DNA from: Capnocytophaga stomatis
GTDB lineage: Bacteria; Bacteroidota; Bacteroidia; Flavobacteriales; Flavobacteriaceae
DNA length: 64,000 nucleotides
Assembly (NCBI RefSeq): GCF_045110935.1
Contig: NZ_JBJGWJ010000009.1
Strand: one strand, 5' to 3'
Shown here: positions 13,218-21,639 of the stretch, in pieces
How the letters are laid out: every line of letters starts with the position of its first letter
Numbering within the stretch: the first letter of the stretch is position 1
The notes under the pieces: generated by a model
Seen by the model: the letters and a program-made list of their open reading frames with translations, nothing else
The model's database searches: none
Told to the model about the DNA's origin: nothing
Program-made: the position numbers and the translations under genes

Positions 13218-13346
13218 GTCAAATCAAACAAAACTAAAAATTATAGTTTAAAAACTATAAAAAATAGTTGTTTAACTTATTTTTTTAGTTTACATTTGCA
13301 TCAAAATAAATTCGTTATCTCATTCATTAATTATAAGTATATAAAA

Positions 13347-13706
13347 ATGAAAAACTTAACATCAAAAGAGGAAGAAATTATGTCTTTTTTTTGGGAAGAA
13401 GGAAAACTGTTTGTAAAGCAAATTTTAGAAAAGTACGATGAACCAAAACCTCATTTTAACACAATTTCCACTTATGTAAGAGCATTGGAAGAGAAAGGTT
13501 TTTTATCACACGAGGCTTTCGGAACGTCATATCAGTATTTTGCCATCATTTCAAAAGAAGATTATCAAAACCGAACGCTAAAGAATGTGGTAAAAAAATA
13601 CTTCGGAAATTCATATCTGAATGTGGTAAATACGTTTATCAAGTCCGAAAAATTATCGGTAGAGGAAATCCGAAAACTATTAGATGAAATTGATAATAAA
13701 TCCTGA
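13347..13706 (+). CDS. blaI: BlaI/MecI/CopY-family transcriptional repressor
   Basis: About 119 aa from MKNLTSKEEEIMSFFWEEGKLFVKQIL… (winged-helix penicillinase-repressor fold). I chose the internal Met start; the ORF track opens at 13296. The gene precedes a BlaR1-type M56 peptidase. Confidence 0.8.
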   Translation: MKNLTSKEEEIMSFFWEEGKLFVKQILEKYDEPKPHFNTISTYVRALEEKGFLSHEAFGTSYQYFAIISKEDYQNRTLKNVVKKYFGNSYLNVVNTFIKSEKLSVEEIRKLLDEIDNKS

Positions 13707-15054
13707 TTATTCTATGGAAAATTTACTTTTATTTGGATTTAAAAACCTAATTTTCACAGGAGTACTATGGATTGCATATCGCTTTTTCATCAGTGGAAAT
13801 ACATTTCATCAAGCAAACCGAATTATCATTTTGTTAATTTTCGCGGGTGGAATTTTGCTTCCTTTTACGAAAATCCACTTACCTGAATTCAATTTTCTGA
13901 AAGAAGTACAAACCTCGTCAGATTTTCTGCTTCCACTTGTTGAAAAAAATGATAAAATCGAAGTAGGTAAAAACACCAACAACCAACTGATTTATAATAT
14001 TTTAATAACAATTTACGGATTAGGAGTTCTATTCTTTAGTTTTCGCTATATTATTGGTTTGGTGTCACTTATAAGAATTTTGAAAAACTCCCAAAAAAAG
14101 CAACTTCCAAATGGTGTTTTCGTGCATATTACAACAGAGAATGTGCTTCCGTTTAGTTGGTTCAAATATATTGTGCTTTCGGAAAAAAATCCAACGTATT
14201 ATTCTGAAAATGTGATATTTCACGAAATGGCTCACGCTGATTATCGTCATTCGTGGGATTTACTTTTTACTGAATTATATCGCATTTTATTCTGGTGGAA
14301 TCCGTTTGTTTGGCTACTCAAAAAGGAGCTTATGCAAGTTCACGAATTTCAAGCTGACCAAAAGGTAATTCAACAAACAAACGATGCTAATTTATATCGT
14401 AAAGAATTGATAATCCAGTGTGTTGGAGCCAAGAAAGTAGCCTTTGCACACAATTTTGAAACAAGTAATTTAAAAAAACGTATTTATATGACAATGAGAG
14501 ACAAATCAACAGGAAAAGCCAAATGGAGCTACGGAACGCTCATTTTAGCAACAAGTGCGGTAATGTTTTTATTTTCAAACGAAACATTACAAGCACAAGA
14601 AAAGGAGACAAAAAACACTTCTGAAATTGAAGTTGTTGGTCACAAAAACGCAAAAAATCAGGATATTATAAATGACCCTGAAGTTATTGTGATTTTAGAT
14701 GAAAAAAAAGTGGAAAATTCTGTATTACAGCAAATAAACCCTGACGAAATTGCAAATATTTCGGTTTTAAAAGACAAAAAATCTATTGGAGCTTATGGAG
14801 AAAAAGGGAAAAAAGGCGTAATCAAAGTAACTACCAAGAAACTTTCCACCGAGCCAAACAAGGAGGTTGAAAAATCAAAAATCACCAATGATGCGTTACT
14901 AATTGTAGATGGAAAAGAATTAGATATCAGTAATTTAGAAAAGATAGACCCTAAAAATATTGAATCTATAACCGTTTTAAAAAACAAAAAATCCACAGAC
15001 GCTTACGGAGAAAAAGGCAAAAATGGTGTGATTTTAGTTGTAACTAAAAAATAA
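13684..15054 (+). CDS. BlaR1-like M56 family membrane metallopeptidase with a C-terminal duplicated SusC-plug-like motif
   Basis: 456 aa with N-terminal TM helices and the HEXXH zinc motif (FHEMAHADYRH). The C-terminus carries two copies of …I(S/T)VLK(D/N)KKS(I/T)(G/D)AYGEKGK(K/N)GVI(K/L)V(T/V)TKK. The start could be the MENLL Met at 13714. Confidence 0.8.
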   Translation: MKLIINPDYSMENLLLFGFKNLIFTGVLWIAYRFFISGNTFHQANRIIILLIFAGGILLPFTKIHLPEFNFLKEVQTSSDFLLPLVEKNDKIEVGKNTNNQLIYNILITIYGLGVLFFSFRYIIGLVSLIRILKNSQKKQLPNGVFVHITTENVLPFSWFKYIVLSEKNPTYYSENVIFHEMAHADYRHSWDLLFTELYRILFWWNPFVWLLKKELMQVHEFQADQKVIQQTNDANLYRKELIIQCVGAKKVAFAHNFETSNLKKRIYMTMRDKSTGKAKWSYGTLILATSAVMFLFSNETLQAQEKETKNTSEIEVVGHKNAKNQDIINDPEVIVILDEKKVENSVLQQINPDEIANISVLKDKKSIGAYGEKGKKGVIKVTTKKLSTEPNKEVEKSKITNDALLIVDGKELDISNLEKIDPKNIESITVLKNKKSTDAYGEKGKNGVILVVTKK

Positions 15055-16212: not shown

Positions 16213-16246
16213 AAAAAAGGACGTATTTTACACGTCCTTTTGTTTT
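16213..16246. terminator. Bidirectional rho-independent terminator (serves the + strand unit and the minus-strand rtcB)
   Basis: A 9-bp stem (AAAGGACGT/ACGTCCTTT) with a 7-nt loop. A T-tract follows on the + strand (TTGTTTTGG). On the minus strand it is followed by TTTTTTGTTTGT. Confidence 0.6.
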
Positions 16247-16303: not shown

Positions 16304-17695
16304 TTACGATTCCATTCTCACAATTCTGGGTTGAAAACGACCTAAAATATCTACCAAATCGGTTTGGGCATTCATCACCTCATTGATGTTTTTGTATGCC
16401 ATTGGAGCTTCTTCGGCATTACCTCCGATGAGTGTTACTTTCTTGTTTTTCAGTTCTTTTTTGATGTCGCTTTGAGTGAAAAGTGTTTTGCACGCAGCTC
16501 GCGAATGAAGCCTTCCTGCACCGTGCGATGCCGAACACAACGAATCGGTATTTCCTCTTCCGCGAACGATAAAACCTTTCTCCGTCATCGATGCGGGAAT
16601 AATGCCAAGTTCTCCTTCACCTGCGGGAGTCGCCCCTTTGCGATGAACGATAACTTCTTTGCCGTTGTGAACTTCTTTCCAAGCAAAATTATGATGATTT
16701 TCAATCCGTGCCTTGAGTCGCCCACCAATGGCTTTTATCAGCCGGCGATGAATATCGTAATGACAAGCCGAAGCATAATCTCCGGCAAGGTTCATCGCTG
16801 TCCAATACTCCAAACCGAGATGCGTACTGAGGTCGAGCCACGCAAATTGCTGAGCTTCTTTAGGTAACGGACATTGTTCTATTGCTTTTCGTACGTAATA
16901 TTGAGCAATTTCCGCCCCGAAACCTCGCGAACCACTGTGCGATAAAATGCCCAGATATTTGCCTTTCGGTAACCCGATTTGCGGGTCTTCCTCCAGAATT
17001 TCTACCTCTCCGAATTCCACAAAATGATTGCCTCCGCCGGAAGTTCCCATTTGCTTGATAGCTTTGCCTTTCAATCGTTTAAGGATTGGAATAAGGTCGA
17101 AAGTATCTCGGTCGAAAATTTCGTGTTCAATATGTGATTTATGTGTTTCATACATTCCAAACTTGGTGTGTTCCACGAGCATTTTTTCGTATTTGTCCTT
17201 CGCACCATCGAGATATGAAACGGGTACATCTAAGATACTCAAACACATACGGCAACCAATATCCAATCCCACGCCATACGGAATTACAGCGTTTTCTACT
17301 GCTAAAACACCTCCGATAGGCAAGCCGTAACCACTGTGAGCATCGGGCATCAACGCTCCGTTTACCGAGATGGGCAGTTTTAAAGCCGTGTAAAGTTGGT
17401 TTTTGGCTTCTTCCGAAATGTTACTTCCAAAGATTTTAAAATCAGCTCTTTGGGCATTGAGTTGGCGTTTTTCTGTTTTTTTGGAAGAAAGCAAGGCTTC
17501 GGCGATTTGCCCGAAAGTCAGATGTTTTTCAAAATCTTTCGGGTTTGCCAAAATTTCTTTCAATAAAGATTTTATATACGCCTGATTTTTATCGTTAAAA
17601 TTGCGTTTCATTACTTCCAACGCCACATTAACCGATTGATTATTAGGATATCCTAACTTTAATATATCTTTTCCTTTTAATTTTAAATTTCCCAT
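16304..17695 (-). CDS. rtcB: RNA-splicing ligase RtcB (3'-phosphate/5'-hydroxyl RNA ligase)
   Basis: 463 aa carrying RtcB metal/GTP-site motifs (…GGGNHFVEFGEV…, …HSGSRGFG…, …ASHGAGR…). Confidence 0.9.
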   Translation of the reverse strand: MGNLKLKGKDILKLGYPNNQSVNVALEVMKRNFNDKNQAYIKSLLKEILANPKDFEKHLTFGQIAEALLSSKKTEKRQLNAQRADFKIFGSNISEEAKNQLYTALKLPISVNGALMPDAHSGYGLPIGGVLAVENAVIPYGVGLDIGCRMCLSILDVPVSYLDGAKDKYEKMLVEHTKFGMYETHKSHIEHEIFDRDTFDLIPILKRLKGKAIKQMGTSGGGNHFVEFGEVEILEEDPQIGLPKGKYLGILSHSGSRGFGAEIAQYYVRKAIEQCPLPKEAQQFAWLDLSTHLGLEYWTAMNLAGDYASACHYDIHRRLIKAIGGRLKARIENHHNFAWKEVHNGKEVIVHRKGATPAGEGELGIIPASMTEKGFIVRGRGNTDSLCSASHGAGRLHSRAACKTLFTQSDIKKELKNKKVTLIGGNAEEAPMAYKNINEVMNAQTDLVDILGRFQPRIVRMES

Positions 17696-17716
17696 TGTTT
17701 TATTTTCAAATTGTTT

Positions 17717-18292
17717 TTACTCTATAAGTTCATCATAAGAACTTAAAAATCTTGAGGGAACTTCATCAGTGAGCCAAACACCATTTTCCGAAAGGTAGAA
17801 CAAATATCCTTCATTGAGCATTTTGCAAGTATCTATCTGAAAAACAAAAACTTCTCCGTGTCGGCTACCTACTTTTTGAGCGGTTTCCAAATCTTTGCTC
17901 AAGTGTACGTATTGTCTGTTTTGTTTCTGAATACCTTTTTGATAAATACTTTGCACAAAACGCTGAGCTGTACCGTGATACAAAATGGCGGGAGGCTTCT
18001 GCGGAAGTAACTCCAAGTCCACCGAAACCGAATGTCCTTGATTAGCTCTGATTTTGGTAAAATCAGCTGAGAAACTGTATCGTTGTTTGTTGTCAGAAGC
18101 GACAATCTCTTTGAGAATGCCCAAATCAATACCAAATTTCGGATAAAGTTTTTTTATTAAGGTTTCAGTATCTGTCCAGCCATTTTTGTCCAATGTTATT
18201 CCGATAATTTCGGGACTGTGCCTCAAAACCAAACTGATAAACTTACTGATTCTGTTATAATTATCTTTGTTTCTTAAATCTTTTTGCTTCAT
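17717..18292 (-). CDS. kptA: RNA 2'-phosphotransferase KptA/Tpt1
   Basis: 191 aa with the Tpt1 motifs ISLVLRHSPE, LYHGTAQRF and HLSKD. The gene overlaps its upstream neighbour by 4 nt. Confidence 0.8.
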   Translation of the reverse strand: MKQKDLRNKDNYNRISKFISLVLRHSPEIIGITLDKNGWTDTETLIKKLYPKFGIDLGILKEIVASDNKQRYSFSADFTKIRANQGHSVSVDLELLPQKPPAILYHGTAQRFVQSIYQKGIQKQNRQYVHLSKDLETAQKVGSRHGEVFVFQIDTCKMLNEGYLFYLSENGVWLTDEVPSRFLSSYDELIE

Positions 18293-18837
18293 TTTTCTAC
18301 TAAATTATCTATTTCTCTGTACTCCTCTTCATCGAAATAATCATCACAAATGGTTTGATATTTTTTGATGAGTGATTGCAAGGCGTTTTTGTAGCCCAAA
18401 TCCCATAAAAGTAAGGCAGCGTGATACACGATTATTTCATCAGTATATCTTTCATTTTCAGAATATTGTACAATCAAATTTTTCTCAATAAAATCAAAAG
18501 TTTCCGCTATCATCTCTGATTTTAACTCTGGGTTTTTGATAAAAAAAGAAATCAATCCTATACGCGTACAACATTCGTGGGTAATACTCGTGCCAAGCCA
18601 AGATTTCCAAACTTGCATTAGTACTTCATTATCAATGTAATAACTATTCATTACATCTAACAGAAAATTCGTTTTGAGCTTGTCATATTGGCTTAAATCC
18701 AATTTTGTATTCAGATATTCAACTTGTTTATTTACAGGAAGTTTCTGAAACTCAAAAAACAACCTATTCTTTTCTTCTTGTAGTTCTAACATTTGTGCGA
18801 TATAGTCTTTCATTTTTCTTAATTTTAAATTTTTCAC
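18289..18837 (-). CDS. Hypothetical protein (182 aa), translationally coupled within the rtcB operon
   Basis: Open frame with 4-nt overlaps on both sides. I recognise no motif in it. Confidence 0.5.
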   Translation of the reverse strand: MKNLKLRKMKDYIAQMLELQEEKNRLFFEFQKLPVNKQVEYLNTKLDLSQYDKLKTNFLLDVMNSYYIDNEVLMQVWKSWLGTSITHECCTRIGLISFFIKNPELKSEMIAETFDFIEKNLIVQYSENERYTDEIIVYHAALLLWDLGYKNALQSLIKKYQTICDDYFDEEEYREIDNLVEK

Positions 18838-19142
18838 TGTGTAACGTTTTTGATAATCGTTTGATATTCCGCTCCTCTGTCAGGGTTTTCATCGGATAAT
18901 ATCACTAATAATTTTTCTATTTCACGCATTACTTTTGTTTGGTAACTTTCTGCTTGTGATTGTGTTGAGAAAAAATCTGTGTGCATAAATTCTCCGTACA
19001 CGCCCAGCGTTACCGAAAAAGGAGCAGTCAATCCGTCTTTTTCTATCGTTATTCTGGCTCCGTCACTATGTTCTAAATCGGAAATAATAATTCCTTCCTC
19101 CGAACCTCGTTTTCCTATATTTTTTCTATTGTTTTTCCACAT
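18834..19142 (-). CDS. Hypothetical protein (102 aa), within the rtcB/prfH operon
   Basis: Open frame with a 4-nt overlap to the downstream gene. I recognise no motif in it. Confidence 0.45.
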   Translation of the reverse strand: MWKNNRKNIGKRGSEEGIIISDLEHSDGARITIEKDGLTAPFSVTLGVYGEFMHTDFFSTQSQAESYQTKVMREIEKLLVILSDENPDRGAEYQTIIKNVTQ

Positions 19143-19242
19143 TTTTATAATAGTTAATGATTTTTTGGCAAAACTACTGACAAATGTCTACGCCATCAAG
19201 AAATGAGCGTCTACAAAGTGTCTACAAGGTGATAATTAACAA

Positions 19243-19926
19243 TTATTCATCAAAATTGATTTTTTTATTTTTTGTTCGTTCTTTTTTGTAAGATTTATCC
19301 ACAAAATTCCGTTTGAAATCTGTTCCCGAAAAGGTACGAACCGCATTGCCTCTCGCTACTTGCTGATGATTGTTCCACTGATTTTGAGCCTGTTGCTTGA
19401 GTTTCTCCAATTCAAAAAGTTGCAATTTTTCTTTAATTCGGCTGATGGCTAACTTCTTGTTTTCCAATTGCGAACGCGTATCCTGCACAAAAACACTCAC
19501 TCCCGAAGGCTGATGCGTAGCCCGAACCGCCGAGTTTACTTTATTAACATTTTGTCCGCCACTGCCTTGCGAACGCACCATTTGAAACGAAATATCGCTT
19601 TCACGAAACACCGCTTTTTCCGATGGAGAAAGCTCAAAAACGCCAATAAACCAGTTCGACCGCTGGTGAAATTTCCTAAAAGTGGATTTTCCCACCCAAC
19701 AAACCGAACCGAGCCAATTCTTTAAAAAAGCCTGTAAATCAGTTCCTTTCAAAAGAAGTGTGACGGATTTTAAGGTTAAGTTTTCGTCGCCTTCTTCTCG
19801 GTGCAGGATTTCTGTTTGTATGCTATTTTCTTTGGCTTCTTGCAAAAATATTTTCAATACTTTGGCTACTACCCATTGGCATTCCAAAGGTCCTTTTCCT
19901 GAAGTTATTTGTATGATTTTTTCCAT
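19243..19926 (-). CDS. prfH: Peptide chain release factor H (PrfH, RF2-like GGQ protein lacking the codon-recognition domain)
   Basis: 227 aa. It has the GGQ motif (SGGQNVNKVNSAVRATH) and an N-terminus MEKIIQITSGKGPLEC typical of PrfH. Its short length fits PrfH. It co-localises with rtcB. Confidence 0.8.
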   Translation of the reverse strand: MEKIIQITSGKGPLECQWVVAKVLKIFLQEAKENSIQTEILHREEGDENLTLKSVTLLLKGTDLQAFLKNWLGSVCWVGKSTFRKFHQRSNWFIGVFELSPSEKAVFRESDISFQMVRSQGSGGQNVNKVNSAVRATHQPSGVSVFVQDTRSQLENKKLAISRIKEKLQLFELEKLKQQAQNQWNNHQQVARGNAVRTFSGTDFKRNFVDKSYKKERTKNKKINFDE

Positions 19927-20507
19927 TTTTCTAAGATTTTAAGTACAATTTCTTTGTTTTTTTTAATTTTGATAAAAGTCGGAAGTTTTGCCACCATCGT
20001 CATTCCTTTTCGAGGACGCAAATCCGAACTGATGTAATTTTCTATTTCCAACAAATGTTTATCATTTTTCGCCCAAAACAAATTCCCCCGAACGTTTTCC
20101 TGAAAGAAATAAGGCAACCCCAAAGTATTATCGCACATCAATCCGTTTGCTTTATCGGTATTGATTCTTTCAAAAATTGGGTCGTATTTCGGATGAACCA
20201 AGAGTGAATGATTGCATTTTTTGCATTTTACGGGAACAAACTGCTGTTTTTCCTTTATATTTTCCTGTTTTATTTCAATGGAATTGCCACAAAACGGACA
20301 ATTGAGCTTAATAATGAGGTTAAAAAGCAATAAATCGCCACTTTTTTTGACTAAACCACAGTGATTACACCTCAAAACAGAATGATTTGGGAAAGTTTCA
20401 CCCGTATGACGGATAACCGCACTTTTTTGACAATTCGGGCAAACCACCCAATTTCCGTTTTCCCACAAGTGAGTATATTTTTCTTTATATATCTTTTTCA
20501 TTTTCAA
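19905..20507 (-). CDS. Hypothetical multi-CxxC zinc-ribbon protein (200 aa)
   Basis: Four Cys pairs (CPNC…CNHC, CPFC…, CKKC) suggest two zinc ribbons. The frame overlaps the prfH start by 22 nt. Confidence 0.5.
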   Translation of the reverse strand: MKMKKIYKEKYTHLWENGNWVVCPNCQKSAVIRHTGETFPNHSVLRCNHCGLVKKSGDLLLFNLIIKLNCPFCGNSIEIKQENIKEKQQFVPVKCKKCNHSLLVHPKYDPIFERINTDKANGLMCDNTLGLPYFFQENVRGNLFWAKNDKHLLEIENYISSDLRPRKGMTMVAKLPTFIKIKKNKEIVLKILEKWKKSYK

Positions 20508-20512
20508 TACAT

Positions 20513-21277
20513 TTAAAGCATTTCTTCAAAAATAGAAGCAATTTCACTGGCGGAAAGCTTCATTTTTGATAAATTATTGTTCTTTAAGTCGTTGTATTTA
20601 TATTTTTCCTTGCCTTTTTTCTTCTCAACATCTTTCCATCCGTAACTTCTGCTGGCTATTTTCTTTTGTATGATGCCACGAACTTTATAATTGTCCAGAA
20701 ACTTATCCAACTGGGCAAGTTCTCTCTCCAAATCCAAGTCCAATGGGCGATAATGTGTTATCATATAAGGTTTTACACGCAACACAAATCGCCAAGGGTC
20801 TCGAAATTCGTAATAAGTTTCAAAAACTTTTCGATGCGGATTGTATTCTTCGGTTTTTATAAAATACGCTTGTTCCTTGTAGTTGAATTCCAATTTTTTA
20901 TACTTTGGAAATTGCCATTCGATGATTTTATGCAGCTTTTGTTCGCGTGGAACTTGTATTTTTTTGCCTCGTTTTCGTTTCTTTTTCAGAAACTTACGAT
21001 TATCGGAATATTGATAAGTATTGATTTTTTCTAAAATTTGATTGAAAAAATCGACACTTTTACTCCGAGCAATGTCGTCCCGAAGCACAAAAAAACGTAC
21101 AAATCCCTTTTGATAAGGTTCAGGCAGAGGCACCAAAGGAATGTTTCGCTTCTGATTCCAAAGTTTTCGCCACAGCTTATTTTGCTGGCGAACGTACTTC
21201 TCGAAAGCCTCTTTCACCAATCGTTTTCGTGTTCGTAGGCTTCTCAATCGAGAATTTTCTATAAATGAATTTCCCAT
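20513..21277 (-). CDS. Hypothetical very basic protein (254 aa, Lys/Arg-rich), first gene of the operon
   Basis: An open frame sits 5 nt upstream of the zinc-ribbon gene. It is highly basic (KKKRKRGKK and similar stretches), consistent with nucleic-acid binding. I assign no family. Confidence 0.5.
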   Translation of the reverse strand: MGNSFIENSRLRSLRTRKRLVKEAFEKYVRQQNKLWRKLWNQKRNIPLVPLPEPYQKGFVRFFVLRDDIARSKSVDFFNQILEKINTYQYSDNRKFLKKKRKRGKKIQVPREQKLHKIIEWQFPKYKKLEFNYKEQAYFIKTEEYNPHRKVFETYYEFRDPWRFVLRVKPYMITHYRPLDLDLERELAQLDKFLDNYKVRGIIQKKIASRSYGWKDVEKKKGKEKYKYNDLKNNNLSKMKLSASEIASIFEEML

Positions 21278-21399
21278 TACTTACTTTTTGATTATCAAAT
21301 GATTTTAAAAAGATATTCAGGGAATTTTGCAATAAAACTTCTTTTGCTAAGGATAATTTACCCCGATTCGGATAAAAAAGAGAAGTACCATAAACAAAA

Positions 21400-21440
21400 T
21401 AAAACCCGAAATCTGCTGACTTCGGGTTTTGGATATTTCG
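21400..21440 (-). terminator. Rho-independent terminator downstream of dgkA
   Basis: AAAACCCGAA…TTCGGGTTTT forms a stem of about 12 bp. On the minus strand it is followed by ATTTTGTTTAT. Confidence 0.5.
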
Positions 21441-21639
21441 TTATACTATTTTTCTAAGAATATGCAACAACACGAAGCCCTGCCACTAAAAATGGCAAAC
21501 AAACTGAGATATTTTGAATGAAATTAAGCATTTTTACTTCGTGTTTTTTTATGTTAAACAATTATTTTCTTTGTGTAAATCGGTGCAAATGTAGAACAAA
21601 TTACAGGAAATACAAATTTTTATCTGATTTTTTTGATTT

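Follow-up and report, generated by a model that had tools for sequence, protein, structure and literature searches.

In a 64,000-nt stretch of the Capnocytophaga stomatis genome (contig NZ_JBJGWJ010000009.1, assembly GCF_045110935.1), hereafter the window, seven minus-strand genes encode a basic 254-aa protein (B254), a zinc-ribbon protein (ZnR), the release-factor homologue PrfH, two acidic proteins of 102 and 182 aa, the RNA 2'-phosphotransferase KptA/Tpt1 and the RNA ligase RtcB (Table 1). Our analysis indicates, with a probability of about two in three, that this locus is a Flavobacteria-type PrfH–RtcB operon for ribosome rescue and rRNA repair, carried by Capnocytophaga of dog and cat mouths, organized in three layers and controlled by an upstream leader. 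The unit splits into a recurrent core, a frequent accessory (ZnR) and a variable slot. The seven-gene operon is real and correctly annotated; an earlier note on this DNA had read it as a single seven-protein pathway, and this reading is only partly supported.

To our knowledge, PrfH–RtcB is the only system that repairs, rather than discards, ribotoxin-cut ribosomes, and the locus bears on how it is switched on and on how RtcB finds one broken phosphodiester in a 30S subunit. The leader is a candidate sensor of translation damage, B254 is a candidate RtcB cofactor from a large family with no detected structural relative, and the exchange of slot genes (KptA, NADAR, exonuclease, nucleotidyltransferase) may reveal the RNA lesions that oral and environmental Flavobacteria face from competitors. 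A bolder joint proposal combines an undescribed, family-wide leader attenuator in Flavobacteriales, B254 as a new-fold RtcB cofactor acting also outside PrfH systems, and the slot as a second, NAD/ADP-ribose-linked damage-reversal arm; it is advanced tentatively, with somewhat less than even confidence. If true, the leader and B254 readings would together establish how bacteria sense and target ribosome repair.

Conservation of the locus in relatives

A one-genome-per-species scan with B254 found a relative encoded at 122 loci, of which the best 80 were kept; each was searched by tblastn with all seven proteins, and its open reading frames (ORFs) were clustered. These loci came from Chryseobacterium, Capnocytophaga, Soonwooa, Riemerella and other Weeksellaceae or Flavobacteriaceae. 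The core, found in nearly every locus long enough to judge, consisted of B254, PrfH (64-75% identical across genera) and a long-form RtcB (83-87%). The gene order was B254-RtcB-(variable)-PrfH in Chryseobacterium and B254-PrfH-(0-5 kb variable)-RtcB in other Capnocytophaga. Minimal forms were observed in C. granulosa (B254-PrfH-RtcB, locus L071) and at L078 (B254-RtcB-PrfH), and several other Chryseobacterium loci added only a TPR gene to the minimal form. The Elizabethkingia locus read RtcB-ZnR-PrfH-TPR, without B254.

The variable positions of the relatives were occupied by a Pol-beta-like nucleotidyltransferase, a TPR protein, an RNase T-family exonuclease, DUF4304, DUF6794 and other zinc-finger proteins. 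A NADAR enzyme (4.7e-54) was encoded in the variable slot of a Capnocytophaga metagenome-assembled genome (MAG; L004, JAUNHN010000068, 3292-3852), directly after B254, in a rearranged locus of order B254-NADAR-...-DUF6794-182aa-ZnR-...-RtcB-...-PrfH. Of the 80 loci, only those of the two closest relatives (L001 and L002) encoded KptA and the 102-aa protein, and L002, L003 and L004 encoded the 182-aa protein. By species, KptA was found at the locus in C. felis and C. cynodegmi only, and the 102-aa protein in these two and in C. canimorsus (L081/L082). In C. felis, a DUF6794 gene stands in place of the 182-aa gene.

Two loci illustrate how far the module can vary. In one C. canimorsus strain (L081, CP029450.1, 5510-8531), the leader, B254, ZnR, PrfH and the 102- and 176-aa genes lie in this order between a fucosidase gene and dnaK, with neither KptA nor RtcB within 8 kb and at a genomic site that differs from the window's; the module was either moved or partly deleted. 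In another Capnocytophaga MAG (L005, JAUNKD010000011, 1-16000), B254 and the leader lie within what looks like a polyimmunity-type island, a same-strand array of more than 20 small ORFs. Among these are SUKH (SMI1/KNR4) and DUF4304 genes, as well as a copy of ZnR located 9 kb upstream. Genes of the SUKH and SuFu immunity type adjoin related loci (L003, L005) and were not found inside the slot.

The unit thus exceeds the two-gene PrfH–RtcB minimum, as the earlier note had stated. The co-occurrence of the four uncharacterized proteins with rtcB and prfH elsewhere, which the note had proposed to check, was seen in many genomes for B254 and ZnR and at only a few Capnocytophaga loci for the 102- and 182-aa proteins. 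A fixed seven-gene set is not supported, KptA and the 102-aa protein being confined at this locus to the closest relatives and the 182-aa protein to a few more Capnocytophaga loci. The former over-reading is hence corrected: KptA and these two proteins are not part of the conserved machine, and the slot genes would rather be lineage-specific add-ons to a counter-toxin island than obligatory subunits.

PrfH and RtcB

The assignment of the GGQ protein to PrfH was borne out by TIGR03072 (219.5 bits for a cut-off of 166.65). The protein is not RF2, as it counts 227 aa and scored 112.5 bits with the prfB model, for a cut-off of 370; it carries SGGQNVNK and aligns only to RF2 residues ~125-330, i.e., without the N-terminal domain of RF1/RF2. 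Over residues 2-222 it aligns to C. gingivalis PrfH (PDB 9MOR, 1.8e-103), including the basic tail (...KSYKKERTKNKK). The available passages of PMC12829566 describe a PrfH-CT subfamily of Flavobacteriia, 225-250 aa long, with an extra basic C-terminal tail; the window PrfH agrees with this definition in tail, length and lineage. According to the same passages, C. gingivalis PrfH catalyzes peptide release on damaged and non-stop ribosomes and hands them off to RtcB.

The RtcB call was equally confirmed (PF01139, 6e-80, 269.9 bits for a cut-off of 27). Residues D145, C148, H224, H253, H351 and H391 align to the metal sites and the GMP-accepting histidine of P. horikoshii RtcB and are invariant in the RtcB alignment. 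The protein failed the model of PrfH-associated RtcB, TIGR03073 (138.6 bits for a cut-off of 271.8), from which it differs as a 463-aa long form: by sequence, it is a distinct long-form RtcB, yet linked to PrfH. Its N-terminal ~95 residues lie outside the Pfam match and are conserved in all RtcBs that accompany B254. When the seven proteins were compared with the PADLOC defence models, none was assigned to a known anti-phage system; the only match was a weak one of the RtcB N-terminus to PDC-S15 (16.5 bits, E 0.0012).

The available texts on C. gingivalis PrfH-CT with CgRtcB (Tian et al. 2026, PMC12829566; PDB 9MOR/9MQ4) and on E. coli PrfH–RtcB2 (PMC9304027, PMC9223846), the homologues for which the function of PrfH and RtcB is established, describe systems like that of the window, with RtcB in the same operon, and the job expected of the latter is alike: rescue and religation of ribosomes cut in h44 of the 16S rRNA, together with tail-based non-stop rescue. 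RtcB would reseal the 2',3'-cyclic-phosphate/5'-OH break in the freed 30S subunit. As far as these texts go, the C. gingivalis and E. coli work concerns a two-protein system, to which the window adds B254, ZnR, the leader and cargo genes.

Upstream leader element

A conserved leader element (~21616-21396) precedes the operon and falls outside the coordinates of the earlier note. A covariance model (R1), built from six Capnocytophaga copies, scored 179.7 bits at the window leader and detected the element at no fewer than 69 loci (E <= 1e-4), on the same strand as and upstream of the first operon gene, with ~100 bits in Chryseobacterium, Elizabethkingia, Soonwooa, Riemerella and Weeksellaceae. 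In Elizabethkingia, it directly precedes rtcB, and in C. canimorsus the leader segment is kept upstream of B254 despite the different flanking genome. The predicted structure comprises 34 pairs, 17 of which change on both sides, and 90.3% of their cells are paired; this level was reached by 0/500 shuffles, and slid controls gave at most 56%. Terminator helix 4 was 97.9% paired, with 6 pairs changing on both sides.

The leader frame, initiated by ATG, was open over 24-26 codons in 69/69 copies, representing 45 distinct peptides, and ended with TAG in 64/69. Of the other two frames, one was open in 5/67 copies and the other in 42/67; shuffled sequences were open in 24% of cases. Many codons vary synonymously at the third base (CAG/CAA, TCT/TCA, GTT/GTA, CCN, CGT/CGC, CAT/CAC), which suggests that the frame is translated. 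The use of Asn, His and Tyr codons as sensors of anticodon nucleases was considered separately: position 7 is mostly AAT/CAT, but the leader is AT-rich, and no such role is claimed.

Since the 3' arm of helix P1 is complementary to the 5' arm of the terminator, it is a candidate antiterminator strand. The corresponding helix appeared in 69/69 folds (-11 to -20 kcal/mol) when the 5' part was blocked and the transcript was cut before the terminator 3' arm, and its 12 pairs were 93.3% paired versus at most 62% in slid controls. A TAnnTTTG box was present within 90 nt upstream of the leader in 69/69 related loci; a scan of the 110 nt that follow the terminator, towards the first gene, revealed no -7 box at any of them. 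Promoter, short frame and intrinsic terminator, all upstream of and co-oriented with the operon, thus have the layout of an attenuator, and a mutually exclusive antiterminator is found in silico.

The simplest interpretation of these sequence features is a trp-like attenuator, which probably senses stalled translation by analogy with PA5471.1. Transcription would start at the leader promoter, and the terminator would form without a ribosome or with a ribosome at the leader stop codon. Instead, a ribosome stalled early in the 25-codon frame would keep helix P1 apart, the freed P1 3' arm could pair with the terminator 5' arm, and transcription would read through into the operon. By this route, repair would be induced by the translation damage itself. 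The PA5471.1 leader peptide of P. aeruginosa controls armZ (RtcB-like) and the prfH gene PA5470, for which stalling-dependent attenuation was proposed (PMC12057347). Both arrangements have a short leader frame and downstream terminators before an RtcB-like/PrfH operon, and in both a stall-driven restructuring of the mRNA is proposed. Unlike its Pseudomonas counterpart, the element of the window belongs to a different phylum and has no link to an efflux-pump anti-repressor, and no sequence relationship between the two was detected; the flavobacterial peptide, of 24-26 aa, is apparently conserved at the amino-acid level.

Alternatively, the leader might be a free-standing gene for a trans-acting small RNA or a small protein, the operon having its own unrecognized promoter. 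The strong terminator would give a discrete RNA of ~180 nt and is always thermodynamically favoured, and the apparent amino-acid conservation means that the peptide might have its own function. Rfam held no family matching the leader; a weak, full-length match to BTnc005, a Bacteroides small RNA family, was obtained at 21398-21569 on the minus strand (25.1 bits for a gathering threshold of 174.8; E 0.015 over 7 kb and 0.00065 over 300 nt), and a Phe_leader match was not significant. No mention of BTnc005 was found in the literature searched. We regard a free-standing gene as unlikely, because the leader always lies on the same strand and directly upstream of the first gene, even when this is rtcB (L086) or when the flank has changed (L081). 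In addition, 0/69 loci have a -7 box downstream of the terminator and before the first gene, the conserved antiterminator complementarity would be purposeless in a simple small RNA, and attenuation has its precedent in Pseudomonas. The attenuator reading is accordingly retained as the simplest one; a family-wide leader element of this kind was not found in the literature searched.

The basic protein B254

B254 contains 62 lysine and arginine residues in 254 and is 93-94% identical to its C. cynodegmi and C. felis homologues. Its AlphaFold2 model, obtained from a 50-sequence alignment, was confident (mean predicted local distance difference test, pLDDT, 85.4) and displayed an antiparallel beta core, preceded by a long basic helix at the N-terminus and followed by helices at the C-terminus. 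No solved structure resembles this model. Translin, the only profile match among PDB sequences (E 0.03), was rejected as a relative.

An exhaustive profile search assigned 880 clusters to the B254 family at E <= 1e-3 and 536 at E <= 1e-10. Among four distant members examined, three adjoin or lie near a long-form RtcB, without PrfH, and two of these three loci also carry WYL-regulator and Band_7 genes; the contig of the fourth, 5.3 kb long, stops before an RtcB could be seen. The RtcBs beside the distant members share the ~95-residue N-terminal region with the window RtcB. Such WYL-regulated RtcB/Band-7 loci, on Bacteroidota-type contigs, resemble the window in associating a B254 member with a long-form RtcB ~50% identical to the window's. 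They differ from it in lacking PrfH, ZnR and the leader, which the R1 search did not detect at WYL-type B254-RtcB loci, and carry instead the WYL regulator, Band_7 and, in some, PF04308 RNaseH-like genes. Because distant members are found beside RtcB without PrfH, B254 would primarily be a partner of long-form RtcB, with PrfH having joined the pair in Flavobacteriales. The most likely role of B254 is to bind rRNA or the 30S subunit and to offer the broken end to the ligase, or else to aid RtcB turnover. Neither a B254–RtcB pairing independent of PrfH nor the lack of a structural match for B254 was found in the literature searched.

B254 could also be a regulator, or a nucleic-acid-binding element of toxin or antitoxin type, that merely travels with rtcB. 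It is very basic and always the first gene, no known enzyme fold was detected in it, and in L003 and L005 it occurs without RtcB or PrfH within 10 kb, L005 lying inside an immunity-like array. This explanation appears very improbable in view of three observations: no DNA-binding or toxin family was detected, distant members keep the RtcB neighbourhood even where a separate WYL regulator is present, and the distance to the following gene (~5-30 nt) is compatible with co-translation with RtcB or PrfH. A role as RtcB partner is thus preferred.

Zinc-ribbon protein

Searches of the four uncharacterized proteins against Pfam, NCBIfam, PADLOC and PHROGs returned nothing significant except generic zinc-ribbon matches. 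ZnR is 98% identical to a C. stomatis protein, and its start is more likely the ATG at 20501, because homologues begin MKKIYK. It was present in about a dozen loci and stood directly before prfH wherever the flank was available; the exceptions were a long stand-alone paralogue and the copy in MAG L004, which lies before rtcB. The ZnR coding sequence overlaps the start of prfH, and the protein most likely assists PrfH on the ribosome.

The stand-alone paralogue, of 333 aa, comes from Capnocytophaga sp. oral taxon 324 (L084, 8001-9002). It shows 55% identity over its first ~195 residues, followed by an extra C-terminal part, and lies alone, with no PrfH or RtcB nearby.

KptA, the small acidic proteins and the variable slot

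KptA was identified as proposed in the earlier note, with a score just above the cut-off (NF002014, 241.4 versus 239 bits). Its closest solved relative is Runella slithyformis Tpt1 (PDB 7KW8, 1e-53), and R24, H25, R71 and R126 correspond to the essential R16, H17, R64 and R119 of the Runella enzyme (PMC6097658), so that KptA looks catalytically competent from its sequence. Besides this Arg-His-Arg-Arg tetrad, the two proteins share their occurrence in Bacteroidota and their clustering with nucleic-acid repair genes. The Runella partners are different, being HD-Pnk, an ATP-dependent ligase-like protein and an MTase-HIT protein, not RtcB/PrfH.

A metagenome scan retrieved the 80 closest relatives of KptA (52-60% identity, 46 loci of at least 8 kb). 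RtcB, PrfH or B254 was nearby in 0/80 of these loci, contrary to the idea that kptA co-occurs with rtcB and prfH. Relatives without repair neighbours and a C. canimorsus locus without KptA thus point to a recent, lineage-specific accretion. In five of the closest KptA loci (L091, L093, L096, L097 and L098, all human-gut metagenome contigs), a ZnR-like ORF was noticed ~6 kb upstream of kptA; with 27% identity and ~65 bits, it may be a chance match or a distant relative.

A functional tie between KptA and the repair proteins is nonetheless possible, because kptA lies tightly before rtcB, some Tpt1 enzymes remove terminal phosphates and NADAR occupies the same slot elsewhere. KptA may clean RNA 2'-phosphate ends or act on another toxin lesion. 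A specific version of this tie makes KptA an end-healing partner of RtcB, which would remove terminal or internal 2'-phosphates left by a wrong opening of cyclic-phosphate ends or by the action of another ligase, and so widen the range of fixable lesions, the 102- and 182-aa proteins being passengers. Comparative studies have indeed counted KptA among the clean-up enzymes of RNA repair, a subset of Tpt1 proteins strips terminal 2'- and 3'-phosphates (PMC6573784), Runella Tpt1, the nearest solved relative, belongs to another putative repair cluster, and kptA is co-oriented with and adjoins rtcB in three species. However, RtcB needs a 3'-phosphate or 2',3'-cyclic phosphate and makes junctions without 2'-phosphate (PMC6097658); the 2'-OH/3'-OH product of KptA would therefore be no RtcB substrate. 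Runella Tpt1 is moreover inept at terminal phosphate removal (PMC6573784), and no KptA–RtcB linkage was observed outside this lineage. End healing by KptA hence seems rather doubtful, and recent accretion is favoured. A cassette-like slot holding KptA here and NADAR elsewhere was not found in the literature searched.

The 182-aa protein had only 11 homologue clusters, every named one from Capnocytophaga. As these homologues count 171-178 aa, the true start is probably downstream of the annotated GTG. One homologue was found alone beside Barstar and Fic genes (L083). Homologues of the 102-aa protein, with 38-45% identity (L175, 5001-5276; L176, 5001-5243), were located on a Pseudoalteromonas megaplasmid, near a YafY/WYL-family gene, and on Mycobacterium/Mycolicibacterium plasmids, among runs of small hypothetical genes; repair genes were absent from the vicinity. 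Both proteins are treated as cargo, perhaps immunity-like; their acidity and the Barstar/Fic neighbourhood of one 182-aa homologue are circumstantial evidence for such a function. As members of known polymorphic-toxin immunity families they were rejected, since no significant match was obtained in Pfam, NCBIfam, PADLOC or PHROGs.

The earlier note had favoured one integrated seven-protein pathway, in which Tpt1 might act on a special substrate by NAD-dependent capping or ADP-ribosylation, with the uncharacterized proteins as candidate factors of RNA or ribosome specificity. The genes do lie tightly spaced on one strand between two terminators, kptA overlaps the 182-aa gene by 4 nt and is 21 nt from rtcB, its product appears competent judging from the tetrad, and the presence of another NAD/ADP-ribose enzyme (NADAR) in the same slot of a related MAG hints at a recurring theme. 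Yet most Chryseobacterium and Capnocytophaga loci lack KptA and the 102- and 182-aa proteins, C. canimorsus retains the 102- and 176-aa genes with neither KptA nor RtcB at the locus, both small-protein families occur in unrelated contexts, and the 80 nearest relatives of KptA have no repair neighbours. A single pathway is consequently quite improbable, and the division into core, accessory and slot is preferred.

Observations against the proposed reading

Several observations weigh against a leader-controlled operon in which B254 assists RtcB and KptA is a recent addition. Regarding the leader, the alignment was fitted to the model, which favours structure; the copies share ancestry, so 69/69 open frames are not 69 independent events; the antiterminator shows little covariation (9 cells); and, whatever the constraint, the terminator persists in minimum-energy folds of the full-length leader, so that the switch would depend on co-transcriptional kinetics. 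Regarding B254, the protein is missing from the Elizabethkingia locus, and L003 and L005 encode it with neither PrfH nor RtcB within 10 kb; by these exceptions, neither its requirement nor its linkage is strict. The putative roles given to B254 and ZnR are drawn from their gene context, charge and predicted structure. Lastly, the 4-nt overlap of KptA with its upstream gene and its distance of only 21 nt to rtcB argue for co-expression, and a real functional link is possible.

Relation to earlier comparative work

The novelty claimed for the expanded operon was overstated, as accretion around RFH(PrfH)-RtcB already appears in Burroughs and Aravind (2019; PMC6514570, section 2.4, Fig. 4G-I). These passages describe a TPR protein and a new Pol-beta nucleotidyltransferase around RFH(PrfH)-RtcB, a protein with one or two zinc ribbons and an additional domain ending in a positively charged helix, and a homologue-less protein with highly charged helical regions. 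This accessory set corresponds to the TPR, nucleotidyltransferase and ZnR clusters found here, and B254 is probably the charged-helical protein. The accessory proteins having thus been described in 2019, the expanded operon is not in itself new. The same passages contain no mention of KptA, the 102- and 182-aa proteins, NADAR, the exonuclease, the leader or a PrfH-independent pairing of the charged protein with RtcB.

Gene layout and boundaries

All seven minus-strand ORFs were recovered at the coordinates first given for them (Table 1). Overlaps of 4-22 nt had been described throughout; this is accurate for three junctions (KptA/182-aa, 4 nt; 182/102-aa, 4 nt; ZnR/PrfH, 22 nt), and the three others are gaps (RtcB/KptA, 21 nt; ZnR/254-aa, 5 nt; PrfH/102-aa, 100 nt). 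The 100-nt spacer is kept in four relatives (C. felis, C. cynodegmi, C. canimorsus). Within it, a -7 box of Bacteroidetes type, TAGTTTTG, lies at 19176-19169 and is accompanied by an approximate -33 element, which makes a second, internal promoter possible. The terminator scan placed terminator-like hairpins on both sides of the unit, at 21430-21401 and 16241-16215.

Table 1. Features of the locus, from the upstream leader to the downstream hairpin, in window coordinates
Feature	Position	Strand	Basis or location
Bacteroidetes-type promoter, perfect: TTTG (21616-21613), N19, TACATTTG (21593-21586)	21586..21616	-	sequence reading and pattern scan
Conserved leader RNA: long-range helix P1, two hairpins, intrinsic terminator	21396..21549	-	covariance model R1
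Leader reading frame, 25 codons + TAG: MLNFIQNISVCLPFLVAGLRVVAYS*	21454..21531	-	
P1 3' arm GGCUUCGUGUU, candidate antiterminator strand	21469..21479	-	codons 18-21 of leader frame
Leader terminator hairpin, then T-run	21401..21430	-	terminator scan
B254, basic 254-aa protein, isoelectric point (pI) 10.1, recurrent RtcB partner	20513..21277	-	
ZnR, two CxxC...CxxC zinc ribbons, conserved C-terminal domain ending in a basic helix	19905..20507	-	
PrfH, long PrfH-CT subfamily, GGQ and basic C-terminal tail	19243..19926	-	
Conserved 100-nt spacer, candidate internal promoter CTTG-N20-TAGTTTTG, tandem GTAGAC repeats	19143..19242	-	
102-aa acidic protein, pI 5.1, lineage-specific cargo	18834..19142	-	
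182-aa acidic protein, pI 4.9, lineage-specific cargo	18289..18837	-	
KptA/Tpt1, intact tetrad	17717..18292	-	NF002014 above cut-off
RtcB RNA ligase, long form, 463 aa	16304..17695	-	PF01139
Terminator-like hairpin 3' of rtcB, read on both strands	16215..16241	-	terminator scan

With respect to mobile elements, no convincing flanking direct or inverted repeats, no tRNA gene and no marked GC shift were found, and no B254 homologue was found on a plasmid. Just past the AraC-type gene that flanks the operon, what by eye is a gene for a BlaI/MecI-like repressor overlaps one for a BlaR1/M56-type sensor with a HEMAH motif (13296-15054, plus strand); the sensor also shows two C-terminal repeats that resemble TonB C-terminal domains.

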